DNA from: an uncultured Bacilli bacterium
Lineage (GTDB): Bacteria > Bacillota_I > Bacilli_A > RF39 > UBA660
Assembly (NCBI GenBank): GCA_947623995.1
Contig: CANQIN010000002.1
Location: 1-51,336 of the forward strand
Direction of reading: 5' to 3'
Length of the DNA: 51,336 nucleotides
The notes beneath the pieces were generated by a model. The model saw only the letters and a program-made list of their open reading frames with translations, was not told the DNA's origin and ran no database searches. Each line of letters begins with the position of its first letter. Position 1 is the first letter of the stretch. The translations under genes were made by a program, and so were the position numbers. Of the stretch, positions 10,653 through 50,208 are shown one piece after another.

Positions 10653-10685
10653 ATTATAACTCTTAAACCCCCCCCCCTGTGTCAA
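10653..10685 (-). promoter_or_regulatory. Switch promoter P1: TTGACA-CA-G10-TTTAAGAGT-TATAAT (21-nt spacer)
   Basis: -35 at 10685-10680; plus-strand C10 at 10668-10677; -10 at 10658-10653. A conserved leader AGAATAGGTGATTTT precedes the ATG at 10629. Confidence 0.7.
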
Positions 10686-12642: not shown

Positions 12643-12674
12643 ATTATAACCCTTAACCCCCCCCCCTATGTCAA
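12643..12674 (-). promoter_or_regulatory. Switch promoter P2: TTGACA-TA-G10-TTAAGGGT-TATAAT (20-nt spacer)
   Basis: -35 at 12674-12669; plus-strand C10 at 12657-12666; -10 at 12648-12643. Leader AGAATAGAGTGATAAA precedes the ATG at 12619. Confidence 0.7.
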
Positions 12675-19903: not shown

Positions 19904-21622
19904 TTAAAAAGCCAAAACAAGTCGAAAACTATCCCATTTTGCTAAACTGCCATATGCTTCATAAGAACGGAATATACCAGAACCAATGCCATCAGTGAAA
20001 TGGCCACCACGTCTAACCCATGGTCCAGCCGAATAGACAATCCAAGCCTCATCGTCATACCAACTGCCTACATATCTTGACTGTGTTAAATACTTCATAC
20101 TTTGGAACGGGCCCATTTCTTTTGTTGCATCTCCTAAAAAGCTTCGATTATATGATGTATTGCTTGTACTATAAGCGTATTTATCATAATATCTTTCATC
20201 GGTTGGTAAGGCAATTCCTTCTGTTACTTCTGAAATATTGTGATTTATTTCTACTCCACTATCATTACATTCTGGACATGTTAATTTTCCTATAAATCCT
20301 GAATTATATGCATTATGCCGTCCTGATGATAATTTTCCAGTATGACCATCTCCTGTTGAATTGTCATCCATTCCAGCCATCATAGTTTCCCAAGATCCTC
20401 CACTCATGTCATATATTCCACTGTAATTTCCAGTTGTACTTGCTACCACACTTGCTTTATTAAAATAATTGGTGTTATACTCACCATCAGCTCCAGGTGA
20501 TGATACACCTCCATATTCATTGCAAGCATCAGGTGTATTACTACATAACTCATTTGTTCCTGTATATCCTGTAGTTGGTTCACGTATTGCAGCATAACCT
20601 GTTAAATAATTGGAATTATTATTGATTCTTACACTTTCATGACTTCCATACACACTATGTTGTAAATAGGCTACGGCTCCCCATTCACTATTTTTCATCA
20701 TATGACTTTTTAAAGACTCTTCATAATGTAATCCCACTATGTATGCTTTTGCTACTTGAATACTTCTCCATGAATATACATTTGGTTTAATTATGACTTT
20801 ATTTGCTGCTTCTATAGAAGCTGCTTCATCACTAGGATTTATCTCTGCAACTTGTGTTCTTTCTGCTCCATCATATCCAGTTTCAAATTTTCCTACCCAT
20901 ATTCCATTGGTATTAAATGATGTGAAGGCTGGATGGGTTAACCATTCACCTTGTTTACTTCCATTTTGTACTTCTTCATCTTTTGTTTCAAATATCACAT
21001 TAATTATTTGTTCTTTATTTGTTTTCGTTGTTAATCCATTATAATTTCCTTCATCAAATATTTGATATCGATATCTGGGGATCCATACAAAATAACTTTC
21101 AATATCTCTTTCTTCTATTGGTTCATTTTCTCCTGGGTCTTCTACACCACTTCTTAATATGACTGCATTTGCCCACTTTTGAGCTCTATAATCATACCAC
21201 TTTTCTTTTTCACTTGCTCTTGTTACTAGTCCATTTTCTTCATTTATTACTATTGGTATTAATTTACTACTTAATTCTGGATCTGCTCCATTTAATTCTC
21301 TATCTATATATTTATTATTAAAATATAAAGTACACTTAGTTTTATTTTTTCTTAAATTCTTTATTAATGGAGCCCATTCTTCACTATTCCATTCAATACT
21401 TGCTCCATTATCACATTCTCCATCTATATAAACTAATCCTTCACTATTTTCTTTACTTGGCATTTCACTTATTTTTTCTTTTCCTTTATAAAAGGCTATA
21501 TCTATATTTTCATTACTATTTTCATTTATTAATAATTTTTCATAGTTTGTAAATGTTAATATATTTAATCCACTTATTAATATCACAATAATTATTAACA
21601 TTATATTTAATTTTTTCTTCAT
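19904..21622 (-). CDS. Paralog family member, class-I N-module fused to an unrelated FGE-sulfatase/SUMF1-like C-domain (type d)
   Basis: N-module IAFYKGKEKISEMP..GECDNGASIEWNSEEWAPLIKNLRKNKTKCTLYF. The C-terminal part has HPAF..GIWVGKFE, GIYDMSGGSWE, RRGGHF and a FRLVLAF end, and lacks the NLRYIG/PSDYGYA motifs. Confidence 0.8.
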   Translation of the reverse strand: MKKKLNIMLIIIVILISGLNILTFTNYEKLLINENSNENIDIAFYKGKEKISEMPSKENSEGLVYIDGECDNGASIEWNSEEWAPLIKNLRKNKTKCTLYFNNKYIDRELNGADPELSSKLIPIVINEENGLVTRASEKEKWYDYRAQKWANAVILRSGVEDPGENEPIEERDIESYFVWIPRYRYQIFDEGNYNGLTTKTNKEQIINVIFETKDEEVQNGSKQGEWLTHPAFTSFNTNGIWVGKFETGYDGAERTQVAEINPSDEAASIEAANKVIIKPNVYSWRSIQVAKAYIVGLHYEESLKSHMMKNSEWGAVAYLQHSVYGSHESVRINNNSNYLTGYAAIREPTTGYTGTNELCSNTPDACNEYGGVSSPGADGEYNTNYFNKASVVASTTGNYSGIYDMSGGSWETMMAGMDDNSTGDGHTGKLSSGRHNAYNSGFIGKLTCPECNDSGVEINHNISEVTEGIALPTDERYYDKYAYSTSNTSYNRSFLGDATKEMGPFQSMKYLTQSRYVGSWYDDEAWIVYSAGPWVRRGGHFTDGIGSGIFRSYEAYGSLAKWDSFRLVLAF

Positions 21623-21649: not shown

Positions 21650-21681
21650 ATTATAACCCATAACCCCCCCCCCTGTGTCAA
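21650..21681 (-). promoter_or_regulatory. Switch promoter P3: TTGACA-CA-G10-TTATGGGT-TATAAT (20-nt spacer)
   Basis: -35 at 21681-21676; plus-strand C10 at 21664-21673; -10 at 21655-21650. The ATG is at 21622. Confidence 0.7.
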
Positions 21682-21742
21682 TATTTAATTATTATTTTAA
21701 ACCACTTTTAACTATAATTTTTTTAAGAAAATTATTATTCAT

Positions 21743-21785: not shown

Positions 21786-23363
21786 TTATTCTATCATAAA
21801 TGGATTATCGATACTTCCATATTTCAAATCATTATTCGGATTTTCTAATATTTTAATATTTGATTTTAAATAGGCTACAGGTTTAATATTTCCAAAAGTA
21901 TCAACGCCTCCACTTGTAGCATATCCCTCAGCTGAAACAAAAAATGCAGTATGAGAATATTCTGTTAATGGAGCTGGATTAATAGTCCAAACATTAGTAT
22001 TAGAGCTAAGCCAATCATTTAAATTACAATTTTCTGTATTATAGGTATTTATACTTTTTATTAAACAATTTGTTCTTACATTTCCTCCTACCGCATAGCC
22101 ATAATCCGATGGATGTATTAAACCTATATATCCATCCCATGTTGTTTTTCTTTCTACTTCATCATTGCAATATATTCCACCTGTATTTTCACATTGTTCT
22201 TTACCATTATGATTACTTCGTTCACTTTCATACATGTATTGAGCTGTTATTTTATTTGAATAATCTATTTCACCAACTGTTCCAGTATACCATCTTACTT
22301 TTGCTATCTTACTCTTTACTTCTTCACTTAGCCCACTATTTGTAAATTCACATGGTATATTTAATTCGCTATATGCATTATAACAATATCCTTTTCCTCT
22401 TGTCCAATATAAACTTGCTCCGATTTCTGGTGTTCCACTATATACATCTTGAGGATTTAATAATTTCATTACATCAGCTTGACTCCATTCATTTACTCCC
22501 CAACCATTATTTATATTTGGTGCACTACTATCCCAGCTATAATCTCCTATATTATCTGCTCTTATTATTTTTACTAAACTTTCTTGCTTTTCAATATCAT
22601 CTAAACTTGTGATATTATTCATAACACCAATTACTCGCCATAATATTGGATTACCATCACCATCTCTATCTCCTATATCTATATAGTTATTTGGTTCTGC
22701 TCCAATATATCTTAAATTATTATCTTTGGTATTATCATATGATAAATTTGTTTCTTCGGTTTTGGCTATTTCTTCTATATAATCACTTGCTACTTGTTCA
22801 CCTATTTTTCCTTCAACCACTATTTTTGATTTTGCTATTTCATTTTCTATTCCACTTTCTTTTGTTACTTCTTCTTTTATCCATAATCTTAACTCATAGT
22901 TTACACTTTCTAATTTTCTTAATCTTCCTTCTGTTAATTGACGACTTTCTTTTGCTTCACTTATTTTTGGTATTTCATTTTCAGGATATTTACTTAATAT
23001 TTTAGGTTCTGTTTCTGTTTCTTCTTTATTTAATAATACTTTTATATTTTCACTATTTAATGTTGTTTCATTTAACATTTCTAAATTTATACTATAATCT
23101 ACATAATTTTCACATTCATTACGGATTGTAAATTTATATGGCTCTAGAATTTTTCCTTCTACATCTGTTTTTGGAAATGTATTTGTTAAACTTATGTTAT
23201 CTTCTTTATTTGTTAATTCTATATCTAAACAACTTGTACTTAAGATATTTTCATTTGTTTGTTCTTTTGTTATTACCCATAAAGCATAACTTACTCCTAT
23301 AGTTATTATTATTAACATTATTACCACTAATCCTATATATAATTTCTTTTTATTTTTGGCCAT
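21786..23363 (-). CDS. Paralog family member, class-II (TasA/camelysin-like) N-module with type-a C-module
   Basis: AAGGAGAA SD lies before the ATG at 23363 (MAKNKKKLYIGLVV..). The sequence continues SYALWVITKEQTNENILSTSCLDIELTN..FTIRNECENYVDYS. The C-module closely parallels 11249-12619 (KIAKVRWYTGT, NGKEQCE, YCNDEVERKTTWDGYIGLIHPSDYGYA). Confidence 0.85.
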   Translation of the reverse strand: MAKNKKKLYIGLVVIMLIIITIGVSYALWVITKEQTNENILSTSCLDIELTNKEDNISLTNTFPKTDVEGKILEPYKFTIRNECENYVDYSINLEMLNETTLNSENIKVLLNKEETETEPKILSKYPENEIPKISEAKESRQLTEGRLRKLESVNYELRLWIKEEVTKESGIENEIAKSKIVVEGKIGEQVASDYIEEIAKTEETNLSYDNTKDNNLRYIGAEPNNYIDIGDRDGDGNPILWRVIGVMNNITSLDDIEKQESLVKIIRADNIGDYSWDSSAPNINNGWGVNEWSQADVMKLLNPQDVYSGTPEIGASLYWTRGKGYCYNAYSELNIPCEFTNSGLSEEVKSKIAKVRWYTGTVGEIDYSNKITAQYMYESERSNHNGKEQCENTGGIYCNDEVERKTTWDGYIGLIHPSDYGYAVGGNVRTNCLIKSINTYNTENCNLNDWLSSNTNVWTINPAPLTEYSHTAFFVSAEGYATSGGVDTFGNIKPVAYLKSNIKILENPNNDLKYGSIDNPFMIE

Positions 23364-23403
23364 AACACATTCTCCTTGTATAACTATTATTTTTATTATC
23401 AAT

Positions 23404-25598: not shown

Positions 25599-26945
25599 TC
25601 AAAATGTTAATCGAAAAGGATTATCTATTGAACCGTAATTATCACTTTCATCTGATTCAATATAGACTTTATTATTTAAATATACAGTTGGTAAAATATT
25701 TGCTTCCTGATTTACATCACCCCAATAAATACCACTCATAGTAGAACTTATAGCAGTTTTATTAGAATTATCAAAATGAGTAGTTAAAAACCAATGACTA
25801 TCAGTATACAACCAATTAATATTTTCAATTGTATAACATGTACTATCAAAATCTAGTAATTTTTTTTCTAAGCAAGTTTCTCTATCATTTGCAACTGCAT
25901 AGCCATAATCTGATGGATAAATTAACCCAACTCCATTATGATATTTTGAATCATTTTCTCTGGTCCATACACTTGGATAGCCACTTTCTTTTACTGAAAC
26001 ACTTCTTTCTTTTTCATACATCGTTGGTGCATTATATATATCATTTGGTTCACCCAAATTCCATATAACATCTTTATCAATCATCAGCCTTGCTTCTTCA
26101 TTTAATCCTTTTGAATTTATATTATCTTGAGTAAAATCACATTCTGTTGGAATAGGATTATTTACATCTTGATAGCAATCACCAATCTCACTATTATAAT
26201 ATATGCCATTTAACATATCTTTTAAAGTTGAAGTTGTCCAATCATTATTATATGTAGATTTATAATCCCAACTATAATATCCTAAATCATCCATAAAGTG
26301 AAAATCTTCATTTTCATCAGTCCAAAATACATTTGAAATTCTTGTTAATTTTACTCTTTGTTCTATTCCACTATCAGTTTGAACGTTTACGAGTCCAATA
26401 ATTCTCCATATTTCATCATTAAATGCTATATAATTATTAGGATCTTCTCCAGCATATCGATATTCTATTTTATTCCAGCCACTATCTATTTCAGTAACAC
26501 TATGATCTACTTTATACAATCCATCACCAGTCTCTACAATAGGAATATCTCTATTTAATTGAAAACCAGTTTGTTCTTTAAAATATAAGCTACACTTTGT
26601 CTTTACTTTTTTTAATCCTTTTACTAATGGGGCCCATTCATTGTTGTTCCATTCAATACTTGCTCCATTATCACATTCACCATGGTCAAATACTAAATTA
26701 TCTGGATTATCTTTTACTGGCATCGTATCTAACTGTTCATCACCTTTATAGAATGCAAAATAAATATCGCTATTACCAAAATAATCAACTTTTCCTTTCA
26801 TCATTGGAAATTCTGCACTTTCCGTAAAACTTGCAAAGGTTTTATATAGAAGTAATGAGACACTTATTAAGACTATTACACTTATACTTATCAATATTGT
26901 TTTTCTTCTTTTCTTACTTTTATCTTCATATTTTTTTAGCTTCAT
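25599..26945 (-). CDS. Paralog family member, class-I N-module with type-b C-module
   Basis: N-terminus ..YKTFASFTESAEFPMMKGKVDYFGNSDIYFAFYKGDEQLDTMP..GECDNGASIEWNNNEWAPLVKGLKKVKTKCSLYF. C-module motifs EYRYAGEDPNNYIAFNDEIWRIIGLVNV, LKDMLNGIYYNSEIGDCY, GLIYPSDYGYA, PTVYL and DNPFRLTF. Confidence 0.85.
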   Translation of the reverse strand: MKLKKYEDKSKKRRKTILISISVIVLISVSLLLYKTFASFTESAEFPMMKGKVDYFGNSDIYFAFYKGDEQLDTMPVKDNPDNLVFDHGECDNGASIEWNNNEWAPLVKGLKKVKTKCSLYFKEQTGFQLNRDIPIVETGDGLYKVDHSVTEIDSGWNKIEYRYAGEDPNNYIAFNDEIWRIIGLVNVQTDSGIEQRVKLTRISNVFWTDENEDFHFMDDLGYYSWDYKSTYNNDWTTSTLKDMLNGIYYNSEIGDCYQDVNNPIPTECDFTQDNINSKGLNEEARLMIDKDVIWNLGEPNDIYNAPTMYEKERSVSVKESGYPSVWTRENDSKYHNGVGLIYPSDYGYAVANDRETCLEKKLLDFDSTCYTIENINWLYTDSHWFLTTHFDNSNKTAISSTMSGIYWGDVNQEANILPTVYLNNKVYIESDESDNYGSIDNPFRLTF

Positions 26946-26967: not shown

Positions 26968-26998
26968 ATTATAGCATTTACCCCCCCCCCTATGTCAA
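26968..26998 (-). promoter_or_regulatory. Switch promoter P4: TTGACA-TA-G10-TAAATGC-TATAAT (19-nt spacer)
   Basis: -35 at 26998-26993; plus-strand C10 at 26981-26990; -10 at 26973-26968. The ATG is at 26945. Confidence 0.7.
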
Positions 26999-31475: not shown

Positions 31476-31571
31476 ATTTTCTCCTTTCCATTAACACACT
31501 TCCTGGTGTATCAATCATTACTTTAAATAAGGTTTTACCAAATGTAAAACCAAATTTAACAATGTGCATTA

Positions 31572-31601
31572 ACTATACCACTATAGTTTATGAGTTGTCA
31601 A
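31572..31601 (-). promoter_or_regulatory. str operon promoter
   Basis: TTGACA (31601-31596), 18 nt, TGg-TATAGT (31577-31572). A ~90-nt leader follows, containing the hairpin GGTTTTAC-ATTTG-GTAAAACC. Confidence 0.6.
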
Positions 31602-31689
31602 ACAAAAAATAGCAAAAAACCATAATAAATTCTTAAAGAATAAGGAAAATATTTAAAAAAACATCAAATTTTTAAATTAAATATAGTTA

Positions 31690-33015
31690 CTATTGAACTG
31701 ATAATACAAAAGGCGAATTTATATCTCCTGTTCCATCAACAATTTTTGTAGAAGTTGTTAAATATAAAGTTGGCCAAACCATAATTTCGGAATTGACACG
31801 ATAATCACTGCTAGTTACCCAACCTTCATATTCTACATAGAATGCATGATTGGAATCATTAGAATCTAGTGATAAAGTCCATAGACAATAATAGGGACTT
31901 GGAGTTAACCAATCATTTGTATAGCAATTACCTCCATCATAATCATATAAATTTTTGACTAAACAATTATTCCTTACTTCTCCTCCTACGGCATAACCGT
32001 AATCACTTGGATAAATTAAGCCTATTCCATTATGCTTTTCTCCTACATCTGTTTCAATACTCCATTCACTTGGATATGTATTACTACTTCCTGTACTTGT
32101 TCCCCTTTCTTTTTCATAAAATTGTTTTGCTGTTATTGTCTCTGTATCCCATCCACCTATATTCCAGCTTACTTCTTTATCTATCATATTTCTTGCTGTA
32201 TCATCTAATCCTTTTGGTAAAATTGCTCCTGTATTAAAATCACACTGGCTTACTATACCACTACTGCTATTATAGCAATCTCCTATTCCACTTTCATAGT
32301 ATATTCCATTCAGCATATCTTTTAATGACGAAGTATTCCAATTATTAGTATCTGTATCCCAATAATACTGGCCAAAATCCTTTTGGCCTTTTACACCATC
32401 TTGTCTTACTATTTTTAGTCTTTGCTCTATTCCACTTTCAGTTTTTACATTTACTAAACCTATAATTCGCCAGATTTCATTATTAAAGAATACATAATTA
32501 TCTGGATCAGCTCCAGCATATCGATATTCAGTTTGATTCCATTCTTGACCAAGTTCTTCTAAATCATCATGAGTTACGACATAAAGTCCATCTCCACTTT
32601 CTACTACTGGTATTTTCATTCCGCCTAATTCTACACCTACTTGTTCTTTAAAATATAAACTACATTTAGTCTTACTTTTACTTAAATTTTTAACCATTGG
32701 TCCCCATTTTTCACTATTCCATTCGATTGTTGCTCCATTATCACATATTCCATGGTCAAATACCAAATTTTCTTCATTACCATTCTGAGGCATTTCATCT
32801 AATTGTTCATCACCTTTATAGAACGCAAAATAAATATCACTATTACCAAAATAATCTACTTTACCTTTCATCATAGGAAATTCAGCACTTTCAGTAAAAC
32901 TTGCAAAGGTTTTATATAATAGAAAAGAAACACTTATTAACACTATTACACTAATGGTTATTAGTATTGTTTTTCTTGTTTTACTATTCTTATCAACATA
33001 CTTTTCTAGCTTCAT
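31690..33015 (-). CDS. Paralog family member, class-I N-module with type-b C-module
   Basis: Same N-terminus and N-module as 25599-26945 (..GICDNGATIEWNSEKWGPMVKNLSKSKTKCSLYF). C-module motifs EYRYAGADPDNYVFFNNEIWRIIGLVNV, LKDMLNGIYYESGIGDCY and GLIYPSDYGYAVGG. Confidence 0.85.
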   Translation of the reverse strand: MKLEKYVDKNSKTRKTILITISVIVLISVSFLLYKTFASFTESAEFPMMKGKVDYFGNSDIYFAFYKGDEQLDEMPQNGNEENLVFDHGICDNGATIEWNSEKWGPMVKNLSKSKTKCSLYFKEQVGVELGGMKIPVVESGDGLYVVTHDDLEELGQEWNQTEYRYAGADPDNYVFFNNEIWRIIGLVNVKTESGIEQRLKIVRQDGVKGQKDFGQYYWDTDTNNWNTSSLKDMLNGIYYESGIGDCYNSSSGIVSQCDFNTGAILPKGLDDTARNMIDKEVSWNIGGWDTETITAKQFYEKERGTSTGSSNTYPSEWSIETDVGEKHNGIGLIYPSDYGYAVGGEVRNNCLVKNLYDYDGGNCYTNDWLTPSPYYCLWTLSLDSNDSNHAFYVEYEGWVTSSDYRVNSEIMVWPTLYLTTSTKIVDGTGDINSPFVLSVQ

Positions 33016-33038
33016 TTTATCACTCTATTCTTAGAGTA

Positions 33039-33071
33039 ATTATAAACTTTAAAACCCCCCCCCCATGTCAA
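33039..33071 (-). promoter_or_regulatory. Switch promoter P5: TTGACA-T-G10-TTTTAAAGTT-TATAAT (21-nt spacer)
   Basis: -35 at 33071-33066; plus-strand C10 at 33055-33064; -10 at 33044-33039. The ATG is at 33015. Confidence 0.7.
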
Positions 33072-33262
33072 GTTTGAAAATATTACTTTATACCACTCTC
33101 AATAAATTTTCAAAATATTAAATTTTTAAAAAATATGTTGCAATGTACAACAATTAAAAAACGAACTAGCCCTTTAGTTACTTGGGCTTACTCATTTTTA
33201 CTGTCAAAGTCAAGTTAAGATCTAAATTTTTTCTATTTACAATATACTTTAATCTAAAATAT

Positions 33263-34597
33263 TTATGATTCTAAAATAAATGGATTATCAATTGTTCCAT
33301 ATTCTTTTTCAGGTTTAGAATTCGGAAGTATTTTAACATTATTTTTTAAATATAGTGTTGGCCAAACGCCTTTACTGTATAGACCAGAATTACGCACATA
33401 TCCATACAAACCAATATAAAATGCACCACGTGAGTATGAAGAATTAGGTGTTAAAGACCATGAATCGCCATCAATAGGTTTTAACCAGTCAGTTCCAGCA
33501 CATTCACTTTGATAATTTATAATATTATTTTCCCAGTTATATAATTCTTTTGTAAAGCATGCTTCCCTTCCTAAATTACCTCCATTAGTCGCATAACCAT
33601 AGTCACTTGGATAAATTAATCCTATTCCATTATGTTTTCCTAATGGATCATTTTTATTACTCCATTCAATTGGATAATCGCTATTTCCAGTTACACTTCC
33701 CCGTTCTTTCTCATAAAAAACATTTACTAAAACATCATTTTCTGGAAAAACTCCTCCAATATTCCAAATTACTTCTTTATCTATCATTTTTCTTGCAGTT
33801 TCATCTAAGCCTTTTGGCAAATTACTGTTTCCTGTGAAATCACATTCATTTTGAGTATCTTGATTTTCATTAATTACTGGAAAACATTCACCTATCGTAC
33901 TTTCATAATATATGCCATTTAACATATCTTTTAATGTTGAAGTATTCCAATTGTTTACATATCTATCCCAAACATAGTTTCCAAAATTTTTTTGAGCATC
34001 AATACCATCGGTTCTCACAATTTTAATTCTTTGTTCTATACCTCTTGCAGTTGCAACATTTACTAAGCCTATTATTCGCCATGTCTCATTATTAAATTTG
34101 ACATAATTATTTGGATTAGAACCTGCATATCGATATTCTATTTTATTCCATTCTTTATTTATTCCATTTACTTCATGACTTACTTTATACAGTCCATCTC
34201 CACTTTCAATTGTTGAAACATTTTTTATAAAATCTATTCCTGATGATTGCCTAAAATATAAAGCACACTTAGTTTTACTTTTACTTAAATTCTTTACTAA
34301 TGGGGCCCATTCTACTTCATCCCAAAGAACATATGCACCATTGTCACATTTTCCATAATCAAAAACTAAATCTTCATTATTATCTTTATCTGGCATTTCA
34401 TCTATTTGTTCTTCTCCTTTATAAAATGCAAAATAATCTACTTTTCCCTTCATCATTGGAAATTCTTCACTTTCGGTAAAAGATGCAAATGTGTTATATA
34501 ACAAAAAAGAAATACTTATTAAGACTATTATGCTTATAGTTATTAGTATTGTTTTTCTTCTTTTTTTATCTTTATTATTATTCTTTTCTAGCTTCAT
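33263..34597 (-). CDS. Paralog family member, class-I N-module (7-codon deletion variant) with type-b C-module
   Basis: ..FASFTESEEFPMMKGKVDYFAFYKGEEQ.. lacks GNSDIYF. The rest includes GKCDNGAYVLWDEVEWAPLVKNLSKSKTKCALYF, EYRYAGSNPNNYVKFNNETWRIIGLVNV and GLIYPSDYGYA. Confidence 0.85.
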   Translation of the reverse strand: MKLEKNNNKDKKRRKTILITISIIVLISISFLLYNTFASFTESEEFPMMKGKVDYFAFYKGEEQIDEMPDKDNNEDLVFDYGKCDNGAYVLWDEVEWAPLVKNLSKSKTKCALYFRQSSGIDFIKNVSTIESGDGLYKVSHEVNGINKEWNKIEYRYAGSNPNNYVKFNNETWRIIGLVNVATARGIEQRIKIVRTDGIDAQKNFGNYVWDRYVNNWNTSTLKDMLNGIYYESTIGECFPVINENQDTQNECDFTGNSNLPKGLDETARKMIDKEVIWNIGGVFPENDVLVNVFYEKERGSVTGNSDYPIEWSNKNDPLGKHNGIGLIYPSDYGYATNGGNLGREACFTKELYNWENNIINYQSECAGTDWLKPIDGDSWSLTPNSSYSRGAFYIGLYGYVRNSGLYSKGVWPTLYLKNNVKILPNSKPEKEYGTIDNPFILES

Positions 34598-34620: not shown

Positions 34621-34652
34621 ATTATAAACCTATACCCCCCCCCCTATGTCAA
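34621..34652 (-). promoter_or_regulatory. Switch promoter P6: TTGACA-TA-G10-TATAGGTT-TATAAT (20-nt spacer)
   Basis: -35 at 34652-34647; plus-strand C10 at 34635-34644; -10 at 34626-34621. The ATG is at 34597. Confidence 0.7.
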
Positions 34653-34735
34653 CATTTAAATTATTATTTTAAACCACTTTTTATGTTTATACTATAAATT
34701 TTCTTTTTTTGAAAATTATTATTCATAAAAAAATC

Positions 34736-36328
34736 GGCTCTAAATAATTTAGTGGGGAGCAAAATTTCATTAAAGCATTATAAAATAAGGGTTTGTCCCT
34801 TATTTTTTGCATTCAAAAAAATTTTATGTTTTTTGAATGCTAATAACACTTATTTTTCTATTTTTTTGATTTCTTTCTTTTTTGGTAATTCCACTTATTT
34901 TTCCATTCATAATATACATAATTCTTAATCTAAAAAAATGAAAATTTTTATATCCAAATCCTATTCTTTTTATGACTTTTATTTTATTATTGATGCCTTC
35001 TGTATAACCATTTGAAAACCTTTTATCTATAAATGAATTAACTATATAGGGTAACCAATTTTCTATTGTTTTTGCTGCTTCTTTCATTTCTTCTATTCCA
35101 TAATTTTGTACTGTACTTATCCATTCTTTTAATTCACTTTCTGCATATTCATAAGTTGTTGTATGTAATACATCAAAAAATAATTCTTTTAATAAATATC
35201 CCTTTTGTAATTCTTCATTTATTGCTAGTATCTCTTCTCTTAAATCATACTTTAATATATCTACCATATGTCCATTTTTATATCTTTTGGTATATGTATA
35301 CCAGTCGACTTCATTGCTATATTTTCTGAGTAATGTTACATTTTTTTTATTTTTTAACATTCTGTATTCTTTTGTATTATATCCATAATTTTTTTGTAAT
35401 TTGATTCTTATTTTATCTAGCGCATCCATTACATATCGTGTATAATGAAATCTATCTACTACATATTTAGCTTTGGGAAACATTATTTGCTGTACGAGTA
35501 GATATGGTTCGTACATATCACTTATGACGAACTCCACTGAATGTCTATTTTCAGTATATGTAAAATACTGAATCAGATATTCTTTTTTTCTATTTGGTAA
35601 TATATCTAATACTTTTCTATGAATTGGATCATTGATAATAAATGCATATTTTCCTTCTTTCGTGTCTGCTTTAAATTCGTCAAATGATATAACTCTTGGT
35701 AAATTCTTTATATGCTCTGGATATTTACTCATTGCATTCTCTAATATATTTCTTATCGTTCCTGCTGATACATTATTACTTTCTGCTATATATTTTAAAG
35801 ATAAATTGTAATTCATTAAATCTTTTAATATTTTTTGTTCTAATTTAGTGGATATTGATTTTCCTTTTTCATTTAATGATAATTCTTCTGTAAATCTTTT
35901 ATTACATTTATGACATATAAACCTTTTCTTTACTATATTTATTGTAGTTTCTTGCTCCATTATTTTTAAATATTTAATTTCTATGGGTTTTAATTTATCA
36001 TGTATGCTTTTTGTATATTCTCCACATTTTGGGCATTTATCTTTTTTCTTTTTACTTTCTACATATATTATTTTTTTCACTTTTTTATTTTCCTCTCTTT
36101 CTTCTATTTTTATTATTTTGTATTCTTCTAACTTTAACAATTTTTCAATTTCATTCATTCTTTTTCACCTCCAATTCCTTATTAAAAAATTGCTCATTTA
36201 TTATACAATAAAAAAAGAAGATAACATTTCTATTATCTCCCCACTAGACTGTCTAGCTTTCTTGATAAAACTCCCCACTAGATTTTCTTAACTGGAATTT
36301 TTATCTCCCCACTAAATTATCTAGAACC
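34736..36328 (-). mobile_element. ISL3-family insertion sequence (1593 bp) with an 8-bp target duplication
   Basis: The inverted repeats are GGCTCTAAATAATTTAGTGGGGAG (34736-34759) and the complement of 36305-36328 (GGTTCTAGATAATTTAGTGGGGAG), matching 22/24. The target duplication AAAAAATC is at 34728-34735 and 36329-36336. An uninterrupted homologous site is present at 21737-21760. Three CTCCCCACTA subterminal repeats sit in 34-bp phase (36237, 36271, 36305). Confidence 0.9.
34824..36158 (-). CDS. ISL3-family transposase
   Basis: N-terminal zinc-finger pairs CPKCG..CHKC, a DDE region including the DRFH motif, 444 aa. Confidence 0.9.
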   Translation of the reverse strand: MNEIEKLLKLEEYKIIKIEEREENKKVKKIIYVESKKKKDKCPKCGEYTKSIHDKLKPIEIKYLKIMEQETTINIVKKRFICHKCNKRFTEELSLNEKGKSISTKLEQKILKDLMNYNLSLKYIAESNNVSAGTIRNILENAMSKYPEHIKNLPRVISFDEFKADTKEGKYAFIINDPIHRKVLDILPNRKKEYLIQYFTYTENRHSVEFVISDMYEPYLLVQQIMFPKAKYVVDRFHYTRYVMDALDKIRIKLQKNYGYNTKEYRMLKNKKNVTLLRKYSNEVDWYTYTKRYKNGHMVDILKYDLREEILAINEELQKGYLLKELFFDVLHTTTYEYAESELKEWISTVQNYGIEEMKEAAKTIENWLPYIVNSFIDKRFSNGYTEGINNKIKVIKRIGFGYKNFHFFRLRIMYIMNGKISGITKKERNQKNRKISVISIQKT

Positions 36329-36371: not shown

Positions 36372-37955
36372 TTATCCTAAAATAAAAGGATTATCTATAC
36401 TTCCATATTCTTTTTCAGGATTGGGATTTTCTAATATTTTAACAGTTGATTTTAAATAAGCTACTGGTTTAACATCATAACCATTTAAAGCTCCATGCGT
36501 AATTATCCGTGTTTCATATAGATGATATACATCTAGTGCCGAGTTGTTTAATGGTGTAAGGGTCCAATTATATTCAGAAGTTATTCGTAACCAATTATTG
36601 TTATTGCAATCCTCATCATATGCATCCAAATTTTTTTGAAGACAGTTATTTCTTGCTTCTCCTCCTACCGCATAACCAAAATCTGAGGGATACAGCAAAG
36701 CAATATATCCATCCCATGCTGTAGTTCTTTCTACTTCATCATTGCAAAACGTTCCATATTCACATTGCTTACTTTTATTTTTACTTCTCTCACCATTATA
36801 CATGTAATCAGCAGTCTTATTTCCATTAGGTGTACCAAGGTTCCATTTAACTTTTGATATAAGAGTTTTTGCCTTATCACTCAACCCACTATTAGTAAAA
36901 TCACATTTTTTATTTTCATTATTTATCCAAAAAAAACATTCTCCATCTTTTTGATTCCAAAATAAACTATTATTAGCTTTAATTTCTTCACCAACATTAT
37001 TTGTTTCCATATTATCGTCATATCCAGGATTTAATAATTTCATTAAGTCTGCTTGGCTCCATTCATTTATTCCATATCCATAGTTTATTGTTTGTATGCT
37101 ACTATCCCAGCTATAGATTCCAATACTATCTGCTCTTATTATTTTTACTAAACTTTCTTGCTTTTCAATATCATCTAAACTTGTGATGTTATTCATAACA
37201 CCGATTACTCGCCATAATATTGGTTGTCCTTCACCATCTCTATCTCCTATATCTATATAGTTATTTGGCTCTGCTCCAATATATCTTAAATTATTATCTT
37301 TGGTATTATCATATGCTAAATTTGTTTCTTCGGTTTTGGCTATTTCTTCTATATAATCACTTGCTACTTGTTCACCTATTTTTCCTTCAACCACTATTTT
37401 TGATTTTGCTATTTCATTTTCTATTCCACTTTCTTTTGTTACTTCTTCTTTTATCCATAATCTTAACTCATAGTTTACACTTTCTAATTTTCTTAATCTT
37501 CCTTCTGTTAATTGACGACTTTCTTTTGCTTCACTTATTTTTGGTATTTCATTTTCAGGATATTTACTTAATATTTTAGGTTCTGTTTCTGTTTCTTCTT
37601 TATTTAATAATACTTTTATATTTTCACTATTTAATGTTGTTTCATTTAACATTTCTAAATTTATACTATAATCTACATAATTTTCACATTCATTACGGAT
37701 TGTAAATTTATATGGCTCTAGAATTTTTCCTTCTACATCTGTTTTTGGAAATGTATTTGTTAAACTTATGTTATCTTCTTTATTTGTTAATTCTATATCT
37801 AAACAACTTGTACTTAAGATATTTTCATTTGTTTGTTCTTTTGTTATTACCCACAAAGCATAACTTACTCCTATGGTTATTAATAGTAATACTATTAATA
37901 CAATAGTTATTATTTTAATTTTATTTTTTGGTTTTTCATAACTTTCTAAATTCAC
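36372..37955 (-). CDS. Paralog family member, class-II N-module with type-a-derived C-module
   Basis: Residues ~30-300 are near-identical to 21786-23363 (SYALWVITKEQTNEN... through ..LVKIIRAD), after which the sequences diverge. A GTG start at 37955 or 37964 follows a class-I type GAGTGAT leader. Confidence 0.8.
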   Translation of the reverse strand: MNLESYEKPKNKIKIITIVLIVLLLITIGVSYALWVITKEQTNENILSTSCLDIELTNKEDNISLTNTFPKTDVEGKILEPYKFTIRNECENYVDYSINLEMLNETTLNSENIKVLLNKEETETEPKILSKYPENEIPKISEAKESRQLTEGRLRKLESVNYELRLWIKEEVTKESGIENEIAKSKIVVEGKIGEQVASDYIEEIAKTEETNLAYDNTKDNNLRYIGAEPNNYIDIGDRDGEGQPILWRVIGVMNNITSLDDIEKQESLVKIIRADSIGIYSWDSSIQTINYGYGINEWSQADLMKLLNPGYDDNMETNNVGEEIKANNSLFWNQKDGECFFWINNENKKCDFTNSGLSDKAKTLISKVKWNLGTPNGNKTADYMYNGERSKNKSKQCEYGTFCNDEVERTTAWDGYIALLYPSDFGYAVGGEARNNCLQKNLDAYDEDCNNNNWLRITSEYNWTLTPLNNSALDVYHLYETRIITHGALNGYDVKPVAYLKSTVKILENPNPEKEYGSIDNPFILG

Positions 37956-37981
37956 TATTATCACTCAATTCTATAATTTAT

Positions 37982-42866: not shown

Positions 42867-44426
42867 TTAAGATAAAGTAAAGGGATTATCTGTTGTTCCG
42901 TTACCATTAGTTATTTTAACATTTGATTTTAAATATAAAACTGGCTTCACTGATAACTGCGATATTGGGGGAGTAACATAACTTACACATCCATCATAAT
43001 TTACAAACATAGTCCCATCGGTCAATCTAGGATTAATTGTCCATTGTGTTATTCCCTTTTCGTATAACCAATCATTTTCAACACATTCCAAAGAAATTTC
43101 TTCAGACCAAGATCTTAAATTCCTATTTAAGCAAGTATCTCTTTTTACATTACTTCCTCCGCTAGTAGCAAAACCATAATCGCTAACATACATTAAACCT
43201 ATTTTTCCAATCCAATTCATGTTATTTTTATGTTCATTTTCATAAAAATAATTAGGAATAAATCCTCCACCACCAAGTGAACTATTTGTATATATAACAT
43301 TACTTATATATGCTTTAGCATCTAAATTTAAACCAGTATCTTTAAAATCGCAAACTATCGTTTCGCCATTTGTTGGACATTCGCCTTTAATTTTTTCCCA
43401 GTATGCTCCATTATTTAAAATTTGTTGTAAATCAGAAAAATTCCAATCATTTCTGGAATTATTATCCCAACTAAAATTACCTATTGAATCCTTTCTAATA
43501 ATTTTCATATGGCTTCCAACTGTTTGGGATTTACTTTCATCTTCACTTACTTCGGTTACATTATTCATAACTCCGATGATTTGCCATAATATTGGATTCC
43601 CTTCACTATCTCTATCACCTATATCTATATAATTATTTGGATTAGACCCAATATATCTTAAATTGTTATCATCGGTTCCTAATTCTTCTCCTAAACTTTC
43701 TTTTCCATCATATGCTAAGTTTATTGTATCTAAATTTGCATTTTCTTTCATACAGGTTACTGCATCTTTTCCTTCTGCTCCACACTTTGCTACTGCACTT
43801 CCATATACTTCTCCTATATCATTACTTTCTGTTGCTGCATTTATTACATTGATACTTGCTTCAAATGTTTGTCCTTCTACTTCATTTCCAGCAATGTCAT
43901 CTATCCATAAATATAAATTGTAGGTTACTTCTTCTCCATTATTTACTACTCCATCAACTTTTGTTCCTCCACTTAATACTCCTGTGTCTAATATATATGA
44001 TGTCCCTAAATTCTCTACCATTAAATTTTCTAAATCAGTATTTATTCTACTTAATTTACTTCCAACATTTGGTTTTTCTTCACTACTTTTATATAAAGCA
44101 TATTTTATTTTACTTGCATCTAAGGTATTTGTACTTAATGTATTTAATGTTAAGACATAATTATTATTAATAGTACAGGTATTTGTTATGGTAAATGTAT
44201 AAGGATTTGTACTTAATCCTATACTATCATTTACTGGATACGTATTATCTAATTTTATACTTTCACTTTGCTCACTAAATCCTATACTAAAACATCCTAC
44301 ATCCATCTCATTTTCATTTGTTTGTTCTTCGGTTATTATCCACAAAGCATATGATTGGGTTATATATAAACATCCCACTAACATTAATCCTATTATTAAT
44401 AATGATAATTTATATCTTACTTTCAT
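42867..44426 (-). CDS. Paralog family member, class-II (group 2) N-module with a hybrid type-a/c C-module
   Basis: MKVRYKLSLLIIGLMLVGCLYITQSYALWIITEEQTNENEMDVGCFSIGF... The first ~275 aa are near-identical to the 46740, 48574 and 50386 copies. C-module motifs NNYIDIGDRDSEGNPILWQIIGVMNN, GLMYVSDYGFA, PVLYLKS and DNPFTLS. Confidence 0.85.
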   Translation of the reverse strand: MKVRYKLSLLIIGLMLVGCLYITQSYALWIITEEQTNENEMDVGCFSIGFSEQSESIKLDNTYPVNDSIGLSTNPYTFTITNTCTINNNYVLTLNTLSTNTLDASKIKYALYKSSEEKPNVGSKLSRINTDLENLMVENLGTSYILDTGVLSGGTKVDGVVNNGEEVTYNLYLWIDDIAGNEVEGQTFEASINVINAATESNDIGEVYGSAVAKCGAEGKDAVTCMKENANLDTINLAYDGKESLGEELGTDDNNLRYIGSNPNNYIDIGDRDSEGNPILWQIIGVMNNVTEVSEDESKSQTVGSHMKIIRKDSIGNFSWDNNSRNDWNFSDLQQILNNGAYWEKIKGECPTNGETIVCDFKDTGLNLDAKAYISNVIYTNSSLGGGGFIPNYFYENEHKNNMNWIGKIGLMYVSDYGFATSGGSNVKRDTCLNRNLRSWSEEISLECVENDWLYEKGITQWTINPRLTDGTMFVNYDGCVSYVTPPISQLSVKPVLYLKSNVKITNGNGTTDNPFTLS

Positions 44427-44687
44427 TTTTACCAATCCCTATTCTTAAGTTATTTAAAGTATATCAAATTTCTAACGAAAAGTCTTTATATTTTATAAAG
44501 TTATTGGTAAAATCTTGTTATTATAATTTTTTTAAAATAGTAAAAAAGCATAAAAACTATAATATTTAGTTATTTCTTTAAAACTAAATTTATAAAAAGA
44601 AATTTAAAAAGATTGTACATAATATAAATAAGAAATAGATTAAACAATTGACATAATAAACTTTTTTTCGTTTTTTAAATATTTATA

Positions 44688-44879
44688 AAGACAAAATAAA
44701 TATCACTATTACTAAAATAATCTACTTTGCCATTCATCATTGGAAATGAAACATTCTCAGAAAAGGAAGCAAAGGTTTTATAAAGTAAAAAAGAAACTTA
44801 TTAACACAATTACACTTATGCTTATTAATATTATTTTTCTTCTTTTACTTTCTTTATCAACATACTTTTCTAGTTTCAT
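44688..44879 (-). pseudogene. 5' remnant of a class-I paralog (frameshifted, truncated after ~60 codons)
   Basis: It translates from 44879 as MKLEKYVDKESKRRKIILISISVIVLISFFFTL*. A shifted frame continues ..FPMMNGKVDYFSNSDIYFVF, then homology ends near 44688. Confidence 0.7.
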
Positions 44880-44901
44880 TATAATCATCCATTCTACTAT
44901 G

Positions 44902-44932
44902 ATTATAGCTCTTGACCTATCCTCCATGTCAA
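44902..44932 (-). promoter_or_regulatory. Switch-promoter homolog with a degenerated tract (TTGACA-TGGAGGATAGG..-TATAAT, 19-nt spacer)
   Basis: -35 at 44932-44927 and -10 at 44907-44902. The position of the G10 is occupied by GGAGGATAGG. The upstream flank matches P5. Confidence 0.5.
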
Positions 44933-45112
44933 GTTTGAAAATATTATTTTAAACCACTTGCTATATTTGTAATTTATGCAATATACTTTAAAATATCATG
45001 TAATCTAATTTTAATTTACTTACTGATACTTTTTAATAACACTTAATTTATATGTCTACTTTCAAAAAGGGCAAACTCAAAGTTAAGATAATAGTTTTGT
45101 ATTTATTTACCC

Positions 45113-45967
45113 TTAAGTATTTTTCTGTTTTTTTATTAATTTAGAATGAACAACAATTCTACCACCATAATTATTTTGGCATGTTGATAAAGTAAGAATT
45201 TTATCATTTTCATTTACTAAAGTATCTATGGGAGCCACATTACGTTTTTTCATTTCATTAAGCCAATTTTTCTTTTTTTCAATACTTGCAAAATTTGGCG
45301 TAATATAATAAGATTCTTTAGGAATTGTATAAATAGAAAAAATTTGAAAAAGCATATTTTCTTTTAAAGTTGATAAGTATATTACATAATTATCTTTATT
45401 ATTTTGCCATTCTGATGTTAATACAAGATTTAATGATCCAAAAAGTGTTGCATCTAATCTAGAATGACCATATATAACATTATTATCTACTAAATCTATT
45501 AAGTTACCTCGAAAATCTAAAAATATCCAACCAGCTTTATTTTCACTTTTATCAAATGAATGATTCAAATAAAACTCATTATCAGATCCTTGAACAACAG
45601 GATAATTAACAGCAGTATTATTAATTTTTATATAACCAACTGTATTATTATTTTTTAATAATAATTTTGAAAAATTAACTGTTAAAAATGGGAAATTAAT
45701 ATAATAGAAATAATTATCATTTAAATTATTTGGAGGATTAACTAATTGTTGATTTTCATTATTATTTTTAATATCTATAATTTCATTAATTTCATTATTT
45801 ATTTGTCGAATTTTGGAATTATTAATTTGCCAATTTAATATAGTATATATTGAGAAGATAAAAATAAGAAGACACAAAATAAAAATTATATTTTTTAATA
45901 ACTTCTTTTGAGCTTTAACATTATTTTGTTCTTTAAAATAATCTTCTATAGAAATATATTTTTTCAC
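45113..45967 (-). CDS. srtB: Class B sortase
   Basis: N-terminal TM anchor, VIYGHSR and the catalytic TLSTC motif, then a conserved Arg region (GGRIVVHSKL). The start is a GTG behind a GAAGGTGA SD. Confidence 0.8.
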   Translation of the reverse strand: MKKYISIEDYFKEQNNVKAQKKLLKNIIFILCLLIFIFSIYTILNWQINNSKIRQINNEINEIIDIKNNNENQQLVNPPNNLNDNYFYYINFPFLTVNFSKLLLKNNNTVGYIKINNTAVNYPVVQGSDNEFYLNHSFDKSENKAGWIFLDFRGNLIDLVDNNVIYGHSRLDATLFGSLNLVLTSEWQNNKDNYVIYLSTLKENMLFQIFSIYTIPKESYYITPNFASIEKKKNWLNEMKKRNVAPIDTLVNENDKILTLSTCQNNYGGRIVVHSKLIKKQKNT

Positions 45968-46023: not shown

Positions 46024-46674
46024 ATGAAAAAATTTTTTTTAATCTTTACATTCATAATACTTTTTAGCACCCAAACGGTATTTGCTGCAAGTAATTATGG
46101 AGAAGTAAAAGATATTACAAAACAGGCAGGTGATTCTCTTACTAAAGGAGAAGGAACAATTGAGACAAAGGGCGACACAACAACAATTAGATATGAAGCT
46201 TCAACATTTAAAATGTTGGAAAAAGATGAAAATGCTGCAGATGGAGAAAGACCTGGTCCAGCAGCTTGGATAGGTTTTAAAATTACTGAACCTACTGATG
46301 GAAGTAATTCAAAATTTAAAGTTACAACTCCAGATAATAAAACTATTGAAATAAGTTCTTCATCATATACCGATTATGTAGGTATTACTCCTACAAATTT
46401 AAAAAATGCTCTTTTAAAAGGAACAGTGCTTACTTATAAATATAGTTTTGACTGGGATGAAAATGGCGAGAATGATCAATTTGTTATAATTGAAATTGAT
46501 CCTGAAGAAATTACATTAATTGATACAAGTGGAGAGACGGTTTGGTCACCACAGATTGCTAAAGATTTATTAGAAGCTCAAAATCCAAAAACATCAGATA
46601 TTAACTTATTATTAGTTATTGGTCTTATAATAATTAGTGGATTAGGAATAACTTATTATTTTAAAAAAGCTTAA
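46024..46674 (+). CDS. Secreted protein with an NPKTSD sortase-B type sorting signal
   Basis: Signal peptide ..FSTQTVFA. The C-terminus is AQNPKTSD, then the hydrophobic stretch INLLLVIGLIIISGLGITYYF, then KKA. It is transcribed divergently from srtB. Confidence 0.8.
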   Translation: MKKFFLIFTFIILFSTQTVFAASNYGEVKDITKQAGDSLTKGEGTIETKGDTTTIRYEASTFKMLEKDENAADGERPGPAAWIGFKITEPTDGSNSKFKVTTPDNKTIEISSSSYTDYVGITPTNLKNALLKGTVLTYKYSFDWDENGENDQFVIIEIDPEEITLIDTSGETVWSPQIAKDLLEAQNPKTSDINLLLVIGLIIISGLGITYYFKKA

Positions 46675-46739: not shown

Positions 46740-48365
46740 TTAAGATTCTAAGATAAATGGATTATCTATTGTTCCATTTCCATTTATTATTTTAACATTT
46801 GATTTTAAATATAAGGTAGGCCAAACTCCAAAAGCATAATCTATACTTCCTGTATGGCTTACATATCCAGAAGAAAAAATGTTGTATGATCTTCCAGAAT
46901 GAGAAGAATTTGAGGTCAAAAGCCACTGATAATCTTTATTTGGTTTTAGCCAATCATTTAAGGAACAACTTTCAGTATAATAGTCATATATATTCAAGTT
47001 TAAACAAGTTTTTCTGACATTACCACCAACGGCATAGCCGTAATCTGAAGGATATATTAGACCAATACCATTGTGATAATTAGAATCATTTTCTTTAGTC
47101 CATTCGTTTGGATATTCTTGATTATAAACAGCTGTTCCACGTTCATTAATGTATATATTTTTGGAATTTATCCCAACACTATTATAACCTCCCAAACTCC
47201 AGATTATTTCATTATCTATCATTTCTCTAAAGTTTAAATCTATGCCTTTTGGCAAATCTGTTTCAGATCCGCTAAAATTACATGTGTTTTTATTTCCAAT
47301 TTCATTTTGAGCAGTATAACAATCTCCAATTCCGCTTTCATAATATATACCATTTAACATATTTTTTAAACTCGATTTTACCCAATTATTTTCAATAACT
47401 TCTTTTCCATAATCCCAACTGTAATTTCCAAAATCTTTTTGACCAGCTATTCCATCTTGTCTTATTATTTTTAAATGACTACCAGTTATTTCACTTCCAT
47501 CTTCTTGTTCGCTTCTTAAATTGTTCATGACTCCAATAATCCGCCATTTTTCTCCATTAAATGATACATAATTATTTGGATTAGACCCAATATATCTTAA
47601 ATTATTATCATCGGTTCCTAATTCTTCTCCTAAACTTTCTTTTCCATCATAGGCTAAATTTATTGTATCTAAATTTGCATTTTCTTTCATACATGTTACA
47701 GCATCTTTTCCTTCTGCTCCACACTTTGCTACTGCACTTCCATATACTTCTCCTATATCATTACTTTCTGTTGCTGCATTTATTACATTGATACTTGCTT
47801 CAAATGTTTGTCCTTCTACTTCATTTCCAGCAATGTCATCTATCCATAAATATAAATTGTAGGTTACTTCTTCTCCATTATTTACTACTCCATCAACTTT
47901 TGTTCCTCCACTTAATACTCCTGTGTCTAATATATATGATGTCCCTAAATTCTCTACCATTAAATTTTCTAAATCAGTATTTATTCTACTTAATTTACTT
48001 CCAACATTTGGTTTTTCTTCACTACTTTTATATAAAGCATATTTTATTTTACTTGCATCTAAGGTATTTGTACTTAATGTATTTAATGTTAAGACATAAT
48101 TATTATTAATAGTACAGGTATTTGTTATGGTAAATGTATAAGGATTTGTACTTAATCCTATACTATCATTTACTGGATACGTATTATCTAATTTTATACT
48201 TTCACTTTGCTCACTAAATCCTATACTAAAACATCCTACATCCATCTCATTTTCATTTGTTTGTTCTTCGGTTATTATCCACAAAGCATATGATTGGGTT
48301 ATATATAAACATCCCACTAACATTAATCCAATTATTAATAATGATAATTTATATCTTACTTTCAT
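46740..48365 (-). CDS. Paralog family member, class-II (group 2) N-module with type-b C-module
   Basis: ATG at 48365 (MKVRYKL..). The N-terminal ~275 aa are shared with the other group-2 copies. C-module motifs NNYVSFNGEKWRIIGVMNN, LKNMLNGIYYESGIGDCY, GLIYPSDYGYAVGG, WPTLYLKS and DNPFILES. Confidence 0.85.
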   Translation of the reverse strand: MKVRYKLSLLIIGLMLVGCLYITQSYALWIITEEQTNENEMDVGCFSIGFSEQSESIKLDNTYPVNDSIGLSTNPYTFTITNTCTINNNYVLTLNTLSTNTLDASKIKYALYKSSEEKPNVGSKLSRINTDLENLMVENLGTSYILDTGVLSGGTKVDGVVNNGEEVTYNLYLWIDDIAGNEVEGQTFEASINVINAATESNDIGEVYGSAVAKCGAEGKDAVTCMKENANLDTINLAYDGKESLGEELGTDDNNLRYIGSNPNNYVSFNGEKWRIIGVMNNLRSEQEDGSEITGSHLKIIRQDGIAGQKDFGNYSWDYGKEVIENNWVKSSLKNMLNGIYYESGIGDCYTAQNEIGNKNTCNFSGSETDLPKGIDLNFREMIDNEIIWSLGGYNSVGINSKNIYINERGTAVYNQEYPNEWTKENDSNYHNGIGLIYPSDYGYAVGGNVRKTCLNLNIYDYYTESCSLNDWLKPNKDYQWLLTSNSSHSGRSYNIFSSGYVSHTGSIDYAFGVWPTLYLKSNVKIINGNGTIDNPFILES

Positions 48366-48395
48366 ATTACCAATCCCTATTCTTAAGTTATTTAA

Positions 48396-48424
48396 AGTAT
48401 ACAATAATTTAACATTTTTAGCAA
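48396..48424 (-). promoter_or_regulatory. Tract-free promoter of 46740-48365
   Basis: TTGCTA (48424-48419), 17 nt, TATACT (48401-48396). Confidence 0.55.
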
Positions 48425-48552: not shown

Positions 48553-48578
48553 AAAAAAAACTTAACAATTAAGTTAAG
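48553..48578 (-). terminator. AT-rich intrinsic terminator overlapping the stop codon of 48574-50178
   Basis: Minus strand CTTAAC-TTAATT-GTTAAG followed by T8. Confidence 0.5.
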
Positions 48579-50178: not shown

Positions 50179-50208
50179 ATTACCAATCCCTATTCTTAAG
50201 TTATTTAA

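Follow-up and report, generated by a model that had tools for sequence, protein, structure and literature searches.

A G10 homopolymer in the spacer of a promoter upstream of the str operon, and a candidate set of contingency promoters in an uncultured gut Bacilli lineage

The window, i.e. the whole stretch of 51,336 nucleotides analysed here, has a G+C content of 26.2% and comes from a low-GC, uncultured gut Bacilli lineage known from rabbit MAGs; its nearest relatives are gut MAGs from rabbit, mouse and human (Hadza, UMGS) that carry the label uncultured Bacilli or Tenericutes. It codes for at least 11 paralogs that align as members of one protein family. The gene for one of these lies directly 3' of a promoter, P5, for which the minus strand at positions 33071-33039 reads TTGACA T GGGGGGGGGG TTTTAAAGTT TATAAT, where GGGGGGGGGG is a run of ten G's. 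Downstream of this gene is the promoter of the str operon, which precedes rpsL, rpsG, fusA and tuf. The features of the region are:

33066..33071, minus strand: -35 hexamer of P5, a perfect TTGACA (sequence read; motif scan)
33065, minus strand: spacer T of P5, between the -35 and G10 (sequence read)
33055..33064, minus strand (C10 on the plus strand): G10 homopolymer tract of P5, a putative slippage site (run scan of the window)
33045..33054, minus strand: spacer stretch TTTTAAAGTT of P5, between G10 and the -10 (sequence read)
33039..33044, minus strand: -10 hexamer of P5, a perfect TATAAT, with a 21-nt spacer to the -35
33016..33038, minus strand: leader of P5 with AGAATAGAGTGAT (ribosome-binding region) and a 6-bp palindrome ACTCTA/TAGAGT, conserved
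31690..33015, minus strand: P5-driven paralog of 441 aa, with the ATG at 33015 and the stop at 31690-31692
31602..31689, minus strand: 88-nt gap from the paralog stop to the str promoter, with a weak all-A/T hairpin only
31572..31601, minus strand: str operon promoter TTGACA-18-TGgTATAGT, matching 11/12 consensus positions plus an extended -10, conserved in relatives

The initial annotation had placed P5, with its G10 run and 21-nt spacer, upstream of the gene at 31690-33015, and its sequence, position and coordinates all proved correct on re-reading. P5 is best explained as a sigma-A (sigma-70) type promoter, and is assigned to the 441-aa gene by its perfect hexamers 23 nt from the ATG. The 23-nt leader from the -10 to the ATG (33015) reads tactctaagaatagagtgataaa; the palindrome lies directly 3' of the -10, and the leader with AGAATAGAGTGAT and the palindrome is kept across the window paralogs and the relatives L008, L010, L083 and L085. 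The tract is located 5' of the -10 and outside the ORF, and P5 is hence distinct from an intragenic frameshift switch. Some copies of the cassette also carry AAGTGGTTTAAAATAATA 10-30 nt upstream of the -35, in the window at about 33075-33100, 34656-34680, 21685-21710 and 44936-44960, and beyond it in L008, L070, L105, L108 and L112; a role as an UP element or as a site for a regulator is possible.

As the initial annotation had supposed, P5 belongs to a set: there are six such promoters in the window, all on the minus strand, and in each of them the G10 run is flanked by a perfect TTGACA and a perfect TATAAT. The other five, together with a decayed seventh copy of the cassette, are:

10653..10685, minus strand: sister candidate switch promoter, G10, 21-nt spacer, driving paralog 9262-10629
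12643..12674, minus strand: sister candidate switch promoter, G10, 20-nt spacer, driving paralog 11249-12619
21650..21681, minus strand: sister candidate switch promoter, G10, 20-nt spacer, driving the 572-aa paralog 19904-21622
26968..26998, minus strand: sister candidate switch promoter, G10, 19-nt spacer, TGc extended -10, driving paralog 25599-26945
34621..34652, minus strand: sister candidate switch promoter, G10, 20-nt spacer, driving paralog 33263-34597
44675..44932, minus strand: decayed seventh cassette copy, with a motif match at 44902-44932, the tract changed to GGAGGATAGG and a 19-nt spacer

The spacers of the six promoters, P5 included, thus measure 19, 20, 20, 20, 21 and 21 nt. 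The histogram of C runs on the plus strand covers lengths of 1-5 nt and then shows six runs of exactly 10 with none between, against about 0.0007 runs of at least 10 expected; apart from these G10 tracts, G/C runs in the window are at most 5 nt long. Likewise, G8 yields 18 overlapping matches versus 0.08 expected, and TTGACA-N14-26-TATAAT yields 7 matches versus 0.86 expected. A chance origin of the association between tract and promoter is excluded. At least two further paralog loci with G10 are found elsewhere in the same genome (L083; L085/L086).

The promoter forms part of a repeated module, D6, which spans the -35 through roughly the first 60 codons of the gene: its upstream boundary coincides exactly with the -35, and the sequences further upstream diverge. 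In the decayed copy, a remnant of the 5' coding module (MKLEKYVDKESKRRK...) lies 3' of the promoter, frameshifted and truncated, and the tract is degraded via G>A/T substitutions. The ORFs driven by the tract promoters are all intact (6/6), and the sole copy with a broken ORF is also the one with a degraded tract. In an A/T-rich genome, this association of intact tracts with intact genes and of a decayed tract with a dead gene speaks for maintenance of the G10 runs by selection. The decayed copy lies upstream of an intact long-type paralog (42867-44435). The GC skew of the plus strand is strongly negative throughout the window (-0.19 to -0.38), and the minus strand carries almost all genes; hence, all G tracts are on the G-rich strand, which is also the sense strand and probably the leading strand. 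Across the loci examined, C-oriented tracts were found in 0 of 56 cases.

Searches of the paralogs against Pfam and NCBIfam recovered no significant family, a sequence profile search of the PDB with a paralog gave nothing at E up to 1, and an exact-protein look-up of the 572-aa paralog (19904-21622) returned no record. The N-terminal TFASFTE motif may resemble SipW-type signal peptides, for which Pfam and NCBIfam gave no confirmation. An AlphaFold model of the P5 paralog (43 homologs, mean pLDDT 86.5) displays an N-terminal helix (residues 9-39), probably a membrane anchor or an uncleaved signal, followed by domains of extracellular type, first beta and then, at the C-terminus, an irregular alpha/beta one. 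In the PDB, a significant fold match was obtained only with 9qa6, the IgA peptidase of Thomasclavelia ramosa (E 7.5e-8, TM 0.34, 314 columns), which has a 291-residue N-terminal C-type-lectin-like domain (PMC12237041); this domain is taken to be the part matched by the paralog, the match being reported without its aligned region. The P5 paralog has no HExxH motif. The family is likely to comprise secreted or membrane-anchored proteins with a lectin-like domain, and we infer a surface location and a binding function. It is large: a cut-off of E up to 1e-3 gives 7,450 cluster representatives, and its C-terminal ~290 residues reappear as modules within multi-kiloresidue proteins.

The initial annotation had further taken P5 for a switch. 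In this strain, P5 has a G10 tract at the consensus level in every assembly found, namely the window and the assemblies of two other samples. For five of the window tracts, all but the one at 21650-21681, one or two further assemblies each (ERZ27249377, ERZ27249363 or ERZ27249368) allowed a comparison, and all read G10, as do L083 and L085/L086 from the same genome, the latter also in one to two further assemblies. The consensus length is hence exactly G10 in 8/8 tracts of this strain, despite spacers of 19, 20 and 21 nt, with the proviso that consensus assemblies of metagenomes report the population mode and leave minority lengths invisible. Close relatives on contigs from different samples of one ENA study, the same study as this strain, are by contrast polymorphic at three loci:

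Locus P0053: G10 in L101, G9 in L102 and L103; the tract is the sole difference in 2,059 nt (L101/L103), while L101/L102 have 2 differences besides the tract (3 in all) over 2,478 nt
Locus P0017: G10 in L108, L110 and L111, G9 in L109; the tract is the sole difference in 1,934 nt (L108/L109)
Locus P0051: G10 in L113, L114 and L115, G9 in L112; the tract is the sole difference in 1,682 nt versus L114 and L115, with 1 difference besides the tract versus L113

Pooled over the three loci, there are 3 tract changes in ~30 nt versus ~5 substitutions in ~6 kb, i.e. a roughly 100-fold excess of tract changes per base. Switching of tract length is therefore well supported for the cassette in close relatives, where G9 and G10 both occur, while P5 itself is seen only as G10 at the consensus level. 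On two unrelated contigs (L040:4186-4235 and L107:1-35), a sequence with the ends CCTTATGTATACATTTTA and TAAAATGTATACATAAGG abuts or partly replaces the G tract; either a small insertion element with the tract as its target or an assembly artefact of the hairpin type at contig ends would account for it.

In more distant MAGs, runs of at least 7 G's are present at 31/57 family gene starts, always on the sense strand. The promoter-type runs (G8-G13) lie 31-56 nt upstream of the start codon. The coding-type runs lie at +79 to +83 (codons ~27-30), within the membrane-helix codons; loci with such a tract ~80 nt after the start are L016, L021, L026, L028, L039, L042, L050, L055, L059-L062, L066 and L078, and also L053:2467 and L080:4919. 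When tract lengths were simulated and the resulting ORF was read, G9 or G12 gave an ORF of 417-509 aa in all 17 evaluable coding-type loci. The states observed are G10 (n=14) and G11 (n=2), which are out of frame and cut the ORF to about 33 aa, and G9 (n=1, L078), which is in frame; genes in the G10 or G11 state would hence carry a truncated annotation. In terms of the predicted reading frames, this pattern is the signature of contingency loci mostly held OFF, one step from ON. Ten of ~52 tracts lie no more than ~120 nt from where a contig stops, and in three contigs the break falls inside the run itself: these breaks fit read heterogeneity at the tracts, although repeated modules could also break assemblies. 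A scan of JGI metagenomes for TTGACA-N13-28-TATAAT-N7-8-AGAATAGAGTGAT gave 0 matches.

Building on what is directly seen, namely the anatomy of the promoter, the association of tract and promoter, the family-wide poly-G, the G9/G10 polymorphism in relatives and the frame switching of the coding type, we propose that P5 probably undergoes phase variation via the homopolymer in its spacer, as one of a set of contingency promoters driving surface-protein paralogs. In this mechanism, slipped-strand mispairing at replication would add or remove one G in the spacer tract; this would alter the length of the spacer and consequently the strength of the promoter, so that the population would come to consist of cells expressing differing sets of paralogs. 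Some P5 transcripts might in addition continue through the 88-nt gap, with its weak termination, and enter the str operon. For this strain, the mechanism predicts that tract length changes and that expression depends on it; which length is ON is likewise a prediction, for which the spacer geometry is the guide.

Several systems with comparable tracts have been described. In Neisseria meningitidis, porA (poly-G) and opc (poly-C) reportedly carry tracts of ~9-14 nt between or beside the -35 and -10 of sigma-70-type promoters, where tract length is said to set spacer length and thereby the level of surface-protein expression. The cassette reported here shares with these a G/C homopolymer in the promoter of a surface-protein gene; the common Neisseria lengths, however, give spacers of 15-18 nt near the optimum, whereas the consensus here is 18-22 nt, and the bearer is a Gram-positive-type, low-GC, uncultured gut commensal with many paralogs that have the same cassette. 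In Mycoplasma hyorhinis, each vlp surface lipoprotein gene reportedly has a poly(A) run in its promoter spacer, with switching shown experimentally. The parallels are a multigene surface family, a low-GC, reduced Bacilli/Mollicutes-like genome and a spacer homopolymer for each gene, an arrangement that in vlp gives combinatorial ON/OFF patterns; the differences are poly(A) and lipoproteins with repetitive regions in vlp, as against poly(G) and another protein family in the present case. The T-tract of Helicobacter pylori sabA is said to adjoin the -35 on its upstream side, outside the spacer. This promoter tract acts as a ‘rheostat’, with output tuned in steps rather than strictly ON or OFF (PMC4081817), and is a possible model for a situation in which the 19-, 20- and 21-nt states are all sub-optimal. 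The contingency loci of Campylobacter jejuni (PMC8437040, PMC13317227) are similar in their lengths (G8-G13), narrow mode, multiplicity and surface-related genes; Campylobacter tracts are mostly intragenic, whereas those of the window are all in promoters, and it is the coding-type tracts of the relatives (G9 in frame, G10 out) that correspond to the C. jejuni mechanism. The nearest example from a gut commensal is the G-tract of the sortase-dependent pilus of Bifidobacterium breve, in which slippage switches a surface structure with the consensus OFF (PMC9187656). It likewise combines a G tract with Gram-positive-type surface proteins, but is intragenic and involves two loci of pilus genes, rather than the promoter spacers of many paralogs of another family.

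The mechanism is of a textbook kind; literature searches retrieved no description of such tracts in this lineage or protein family. Phase variation in gut commensals has mostly been described as invertible promoters of Bacteroides, along with a few intragenic tracts. If the proposed mechanism is true, small-genome uncultured Bacilli would also diversify their surface via poly-G slippage at many loci, and might in this way escape IgA, phages or competitors. The fragmentation of MAGs at genes of this family and the annotation of many members as truncated would then have an explanation as well. The finding also flags a large domain family without a Pfam model as a probable host- or phage-facing surface component.

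An alternative to spacer slippage is that G10 is a fixed cis-element whose length is held by selection, either as a structural feature of a long-spacer promoter or as a regulator site. Such an element would account for the uniform G10 of all eight tracts of this strain across spacers of 19, 20 and 21 nt, with re-assemblies agreeing where available; for G10 as the mode in many species; for spacers that are never 17 nt; for a tract that is always sense-strand G adjoining the -35; and for the same-length interrupted tract before an intact gene in L047 (see below). Since the consensus represents the population mode, uniform G10 is also expected if it is the mutational equilibrium length. A fixed length fits poorly, however, with the three loci where near-identical contigs are told apart solely or almost solely by G9 versus G10, with the G8-G13 range found in relatives, and with a coding-type tract that is out of frame at G10 and in frame again at G9, an arrangement that is sensible only if the tract is mutable. 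We regard this alternative as unlikely.

For spacer slippage, the geometry of the promoter bears on which length is active. By the usual rule a 17-nt spacer is optimal, and the housekeeping promoters in the window have spacers of 17-18 nt. Among ~30 promoter-type cassettes drawn from many MAGs, the consensus spacer ranges over 18-22 nt and is most often 20 nt, with none at 17 nt, four automatic -10 assignments having been corrected by eye in this survey. An alternative -35 at 17-nt spacing in the common cassette, ACATAG, was rejected as it matches 0/6 consensus positions. At 21 nt, P5 shares the greatest spacer length of the window set with one sister promoter, and is hence predicted to be among the weakest of these promoters: by the usual rule its consensus state would be one of low or no activity, with shorter tracts giving a stronger promoter. 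It must lose 3-4 G's to reach the optimum, which makes for an awkward switch. Two relatives are informative in this regard. One (L084:1-110) is a 77%-identical homolog of the P5 gene which has TTGACT-17-TATAAT without a G tract and looks like a constitutive version. In the other (L047:670-740), an intact 442-aa family gene is preceded by an interrupted tract, GGGAGGGGGG, whose total length equals that of G10; this may be a locked promoter, and is a hint that a promoter with a tract of G10 length may already be active.

These data allow two possible accounts. In the first, the population mode is an OFF or low state at every locus and the mutational equilibrium length is G10, in which case the consensus would read G10 throughout. 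In the second, 19-20 nt is workable for a poly(dG) spacer and G9/G10 is a real toggle; the G9/G10 polymorphisms and the interrupted tract of unchanged length before the intact gene of L047 fit this account. Sequence by itself does not choose between the two. A further-reaching reading would be a lineage-wide ‘phasome’ of lectin-like proteins, with G9/G10 toggles in either the promoter spacer or the signal-anchor codons, spacers of 19-22 nt enabled by poly(dG), and P5 feeding the str operon: the poly(dG) run would make the long spacer usable, such that one G suffices to switch. In this full form we consider it doubtful.

The initial annotation had also noted that the paralog ends 88 nt before the str promoter (31601) with no convincing terminator between, and suggested that switching could add read-through into rpsL. 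The gap (31602-31689) and its lack of a terminator are borne out: the most that it can form is a 9-bp stem of A/T pairs only, hairpins that contain G+C and precede a T-run are absent, and the region folds no better than shuffled sequences (z-score -0.06). A hairpin with a T-run follows the stop in most other paralogs and in tuf, and 9/11 other genes examined have a terminator-like hairpin within ~100 nt of the stop (sequences judged by eye). It could be proposed on these grounds that P5 switching matters mainly via read-through, with ON transcripts altering the expression of rpsL-rpsG-fusA-tuf; added transcripts or occlusion of the str promoter would then couple surface variation to translation capacity. 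However, recognisable terminators are scarce over the whole window, at about chance expectation, which makes a missing one weak evidence, and the tied-longest spacer predicts a weak P5. The str promoter, with its 11/12 consensus positions and extended -10, is conserved along with its ~95-nt leader in all relatives with an identical S12 protein, and ~45 nt of the gap nearest to it are common to the relative L091. The gene upstream of it is a different one in L088, L089, L090, L092 and L093, and over the relatives it varies between a short-chain dehydrogenase gene with a clear terminator, an IS transposase gene, the C-terminus of a 572-aa-type paralog and others; in the synteny comparison a family paralog with P5 was found upstream of rpsL in the same strain only. 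Given this variable neighbour, the adjacency of paralog and str operon is strain-specific rather than a conserved design. As the str operon has a strong promoter of its own, read-through from P5 is regarded as incidental, and in view of that near-consensus promoter, the conserved leader, the non-conserved adjacency and the predicted weakness of P5, a meaningful effect on rpsL finds no support. Read-through as the main consequence of switching is accordingly improbable, and any functional coupling of P5 to the str operon, though possible, is just as improbable and likewise unsupported.

The rpsL leader (about 31476 to 31565) contains a hairpin at 31531-31551 (minus strand), GGTTTTAC-loop-GTAAAACC, followed by TTATTTAAAG, which is kept in L088-L093 with loop changes and one G-U substitution. 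It may represent an attenuator or a ribosomal-protein leader; Rfam at gathering thresholds detected no family in the whole window, the rpsL leader included.

It is scarcely credible that errors of assembly or sequencing produced the tract, or that switching proceeds by DNA inversion or recombination instead of slippage: two-colour Illumina chemistry does make poly-G read tails, and the paralogs do share recombining modules with an ISL3 transposase gene at 34824-36158, but the same conserved context recurs in many independent assemblies and many species, for which an artefact is rejected, and an inverton is rejected as there are no credible inverted repeats around P5, with only weak, 70-93% A/T-rich inverted matches around 32700-33400. 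No recombinase-like gene was found among the ORFs flanking P5, which are family paralogs, the ISL3 transposase gene and the str operon. MerR-type promoters have spacers of 19-20 nt with a dyad operator inside and an adjacent gene for a MerR-family regulator. P5 was rejected as a promoter of this type: its spacer, T-G10-TTTTAAAGTT, has no dyad symmetry, and its neighbours are those just listed.

Apart from the tract-bearing genes, the window contains long-type paralogs without a G tract (42867-44435, 46740-48404, 48574-50217, 50386-51216, 21786-23402 and 36372-37964), the 5' halves of which are 86-98% identical at the DNA level while their C-terminal domains differ; this mosaic structure suggests recombination among family members. 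The ISL3-family transposase gene (minus strand; Pfam DDE_Tnp_ISL3, E 8.7e-58) is the immediate upstream neighbour of the promoter at 34621-34652, and in L108 an ISL3 fragment adjoins a family gene. The window also encodes a class B sortase (45113-45967, minus strand), adjoined by a gene for a small protein (46024-46674, plus strand) that ends in NPKTS and a membrane anchor, and a 1,534-aa repeat protein (4529-9133, minus strand) that ends in NPQTV and an anchor. The latter two are probable sortase B substrates, and the presence of the sortase with two proteins bearing NPxT-type sorting signals implies that the organism has wall-anchored proteins.
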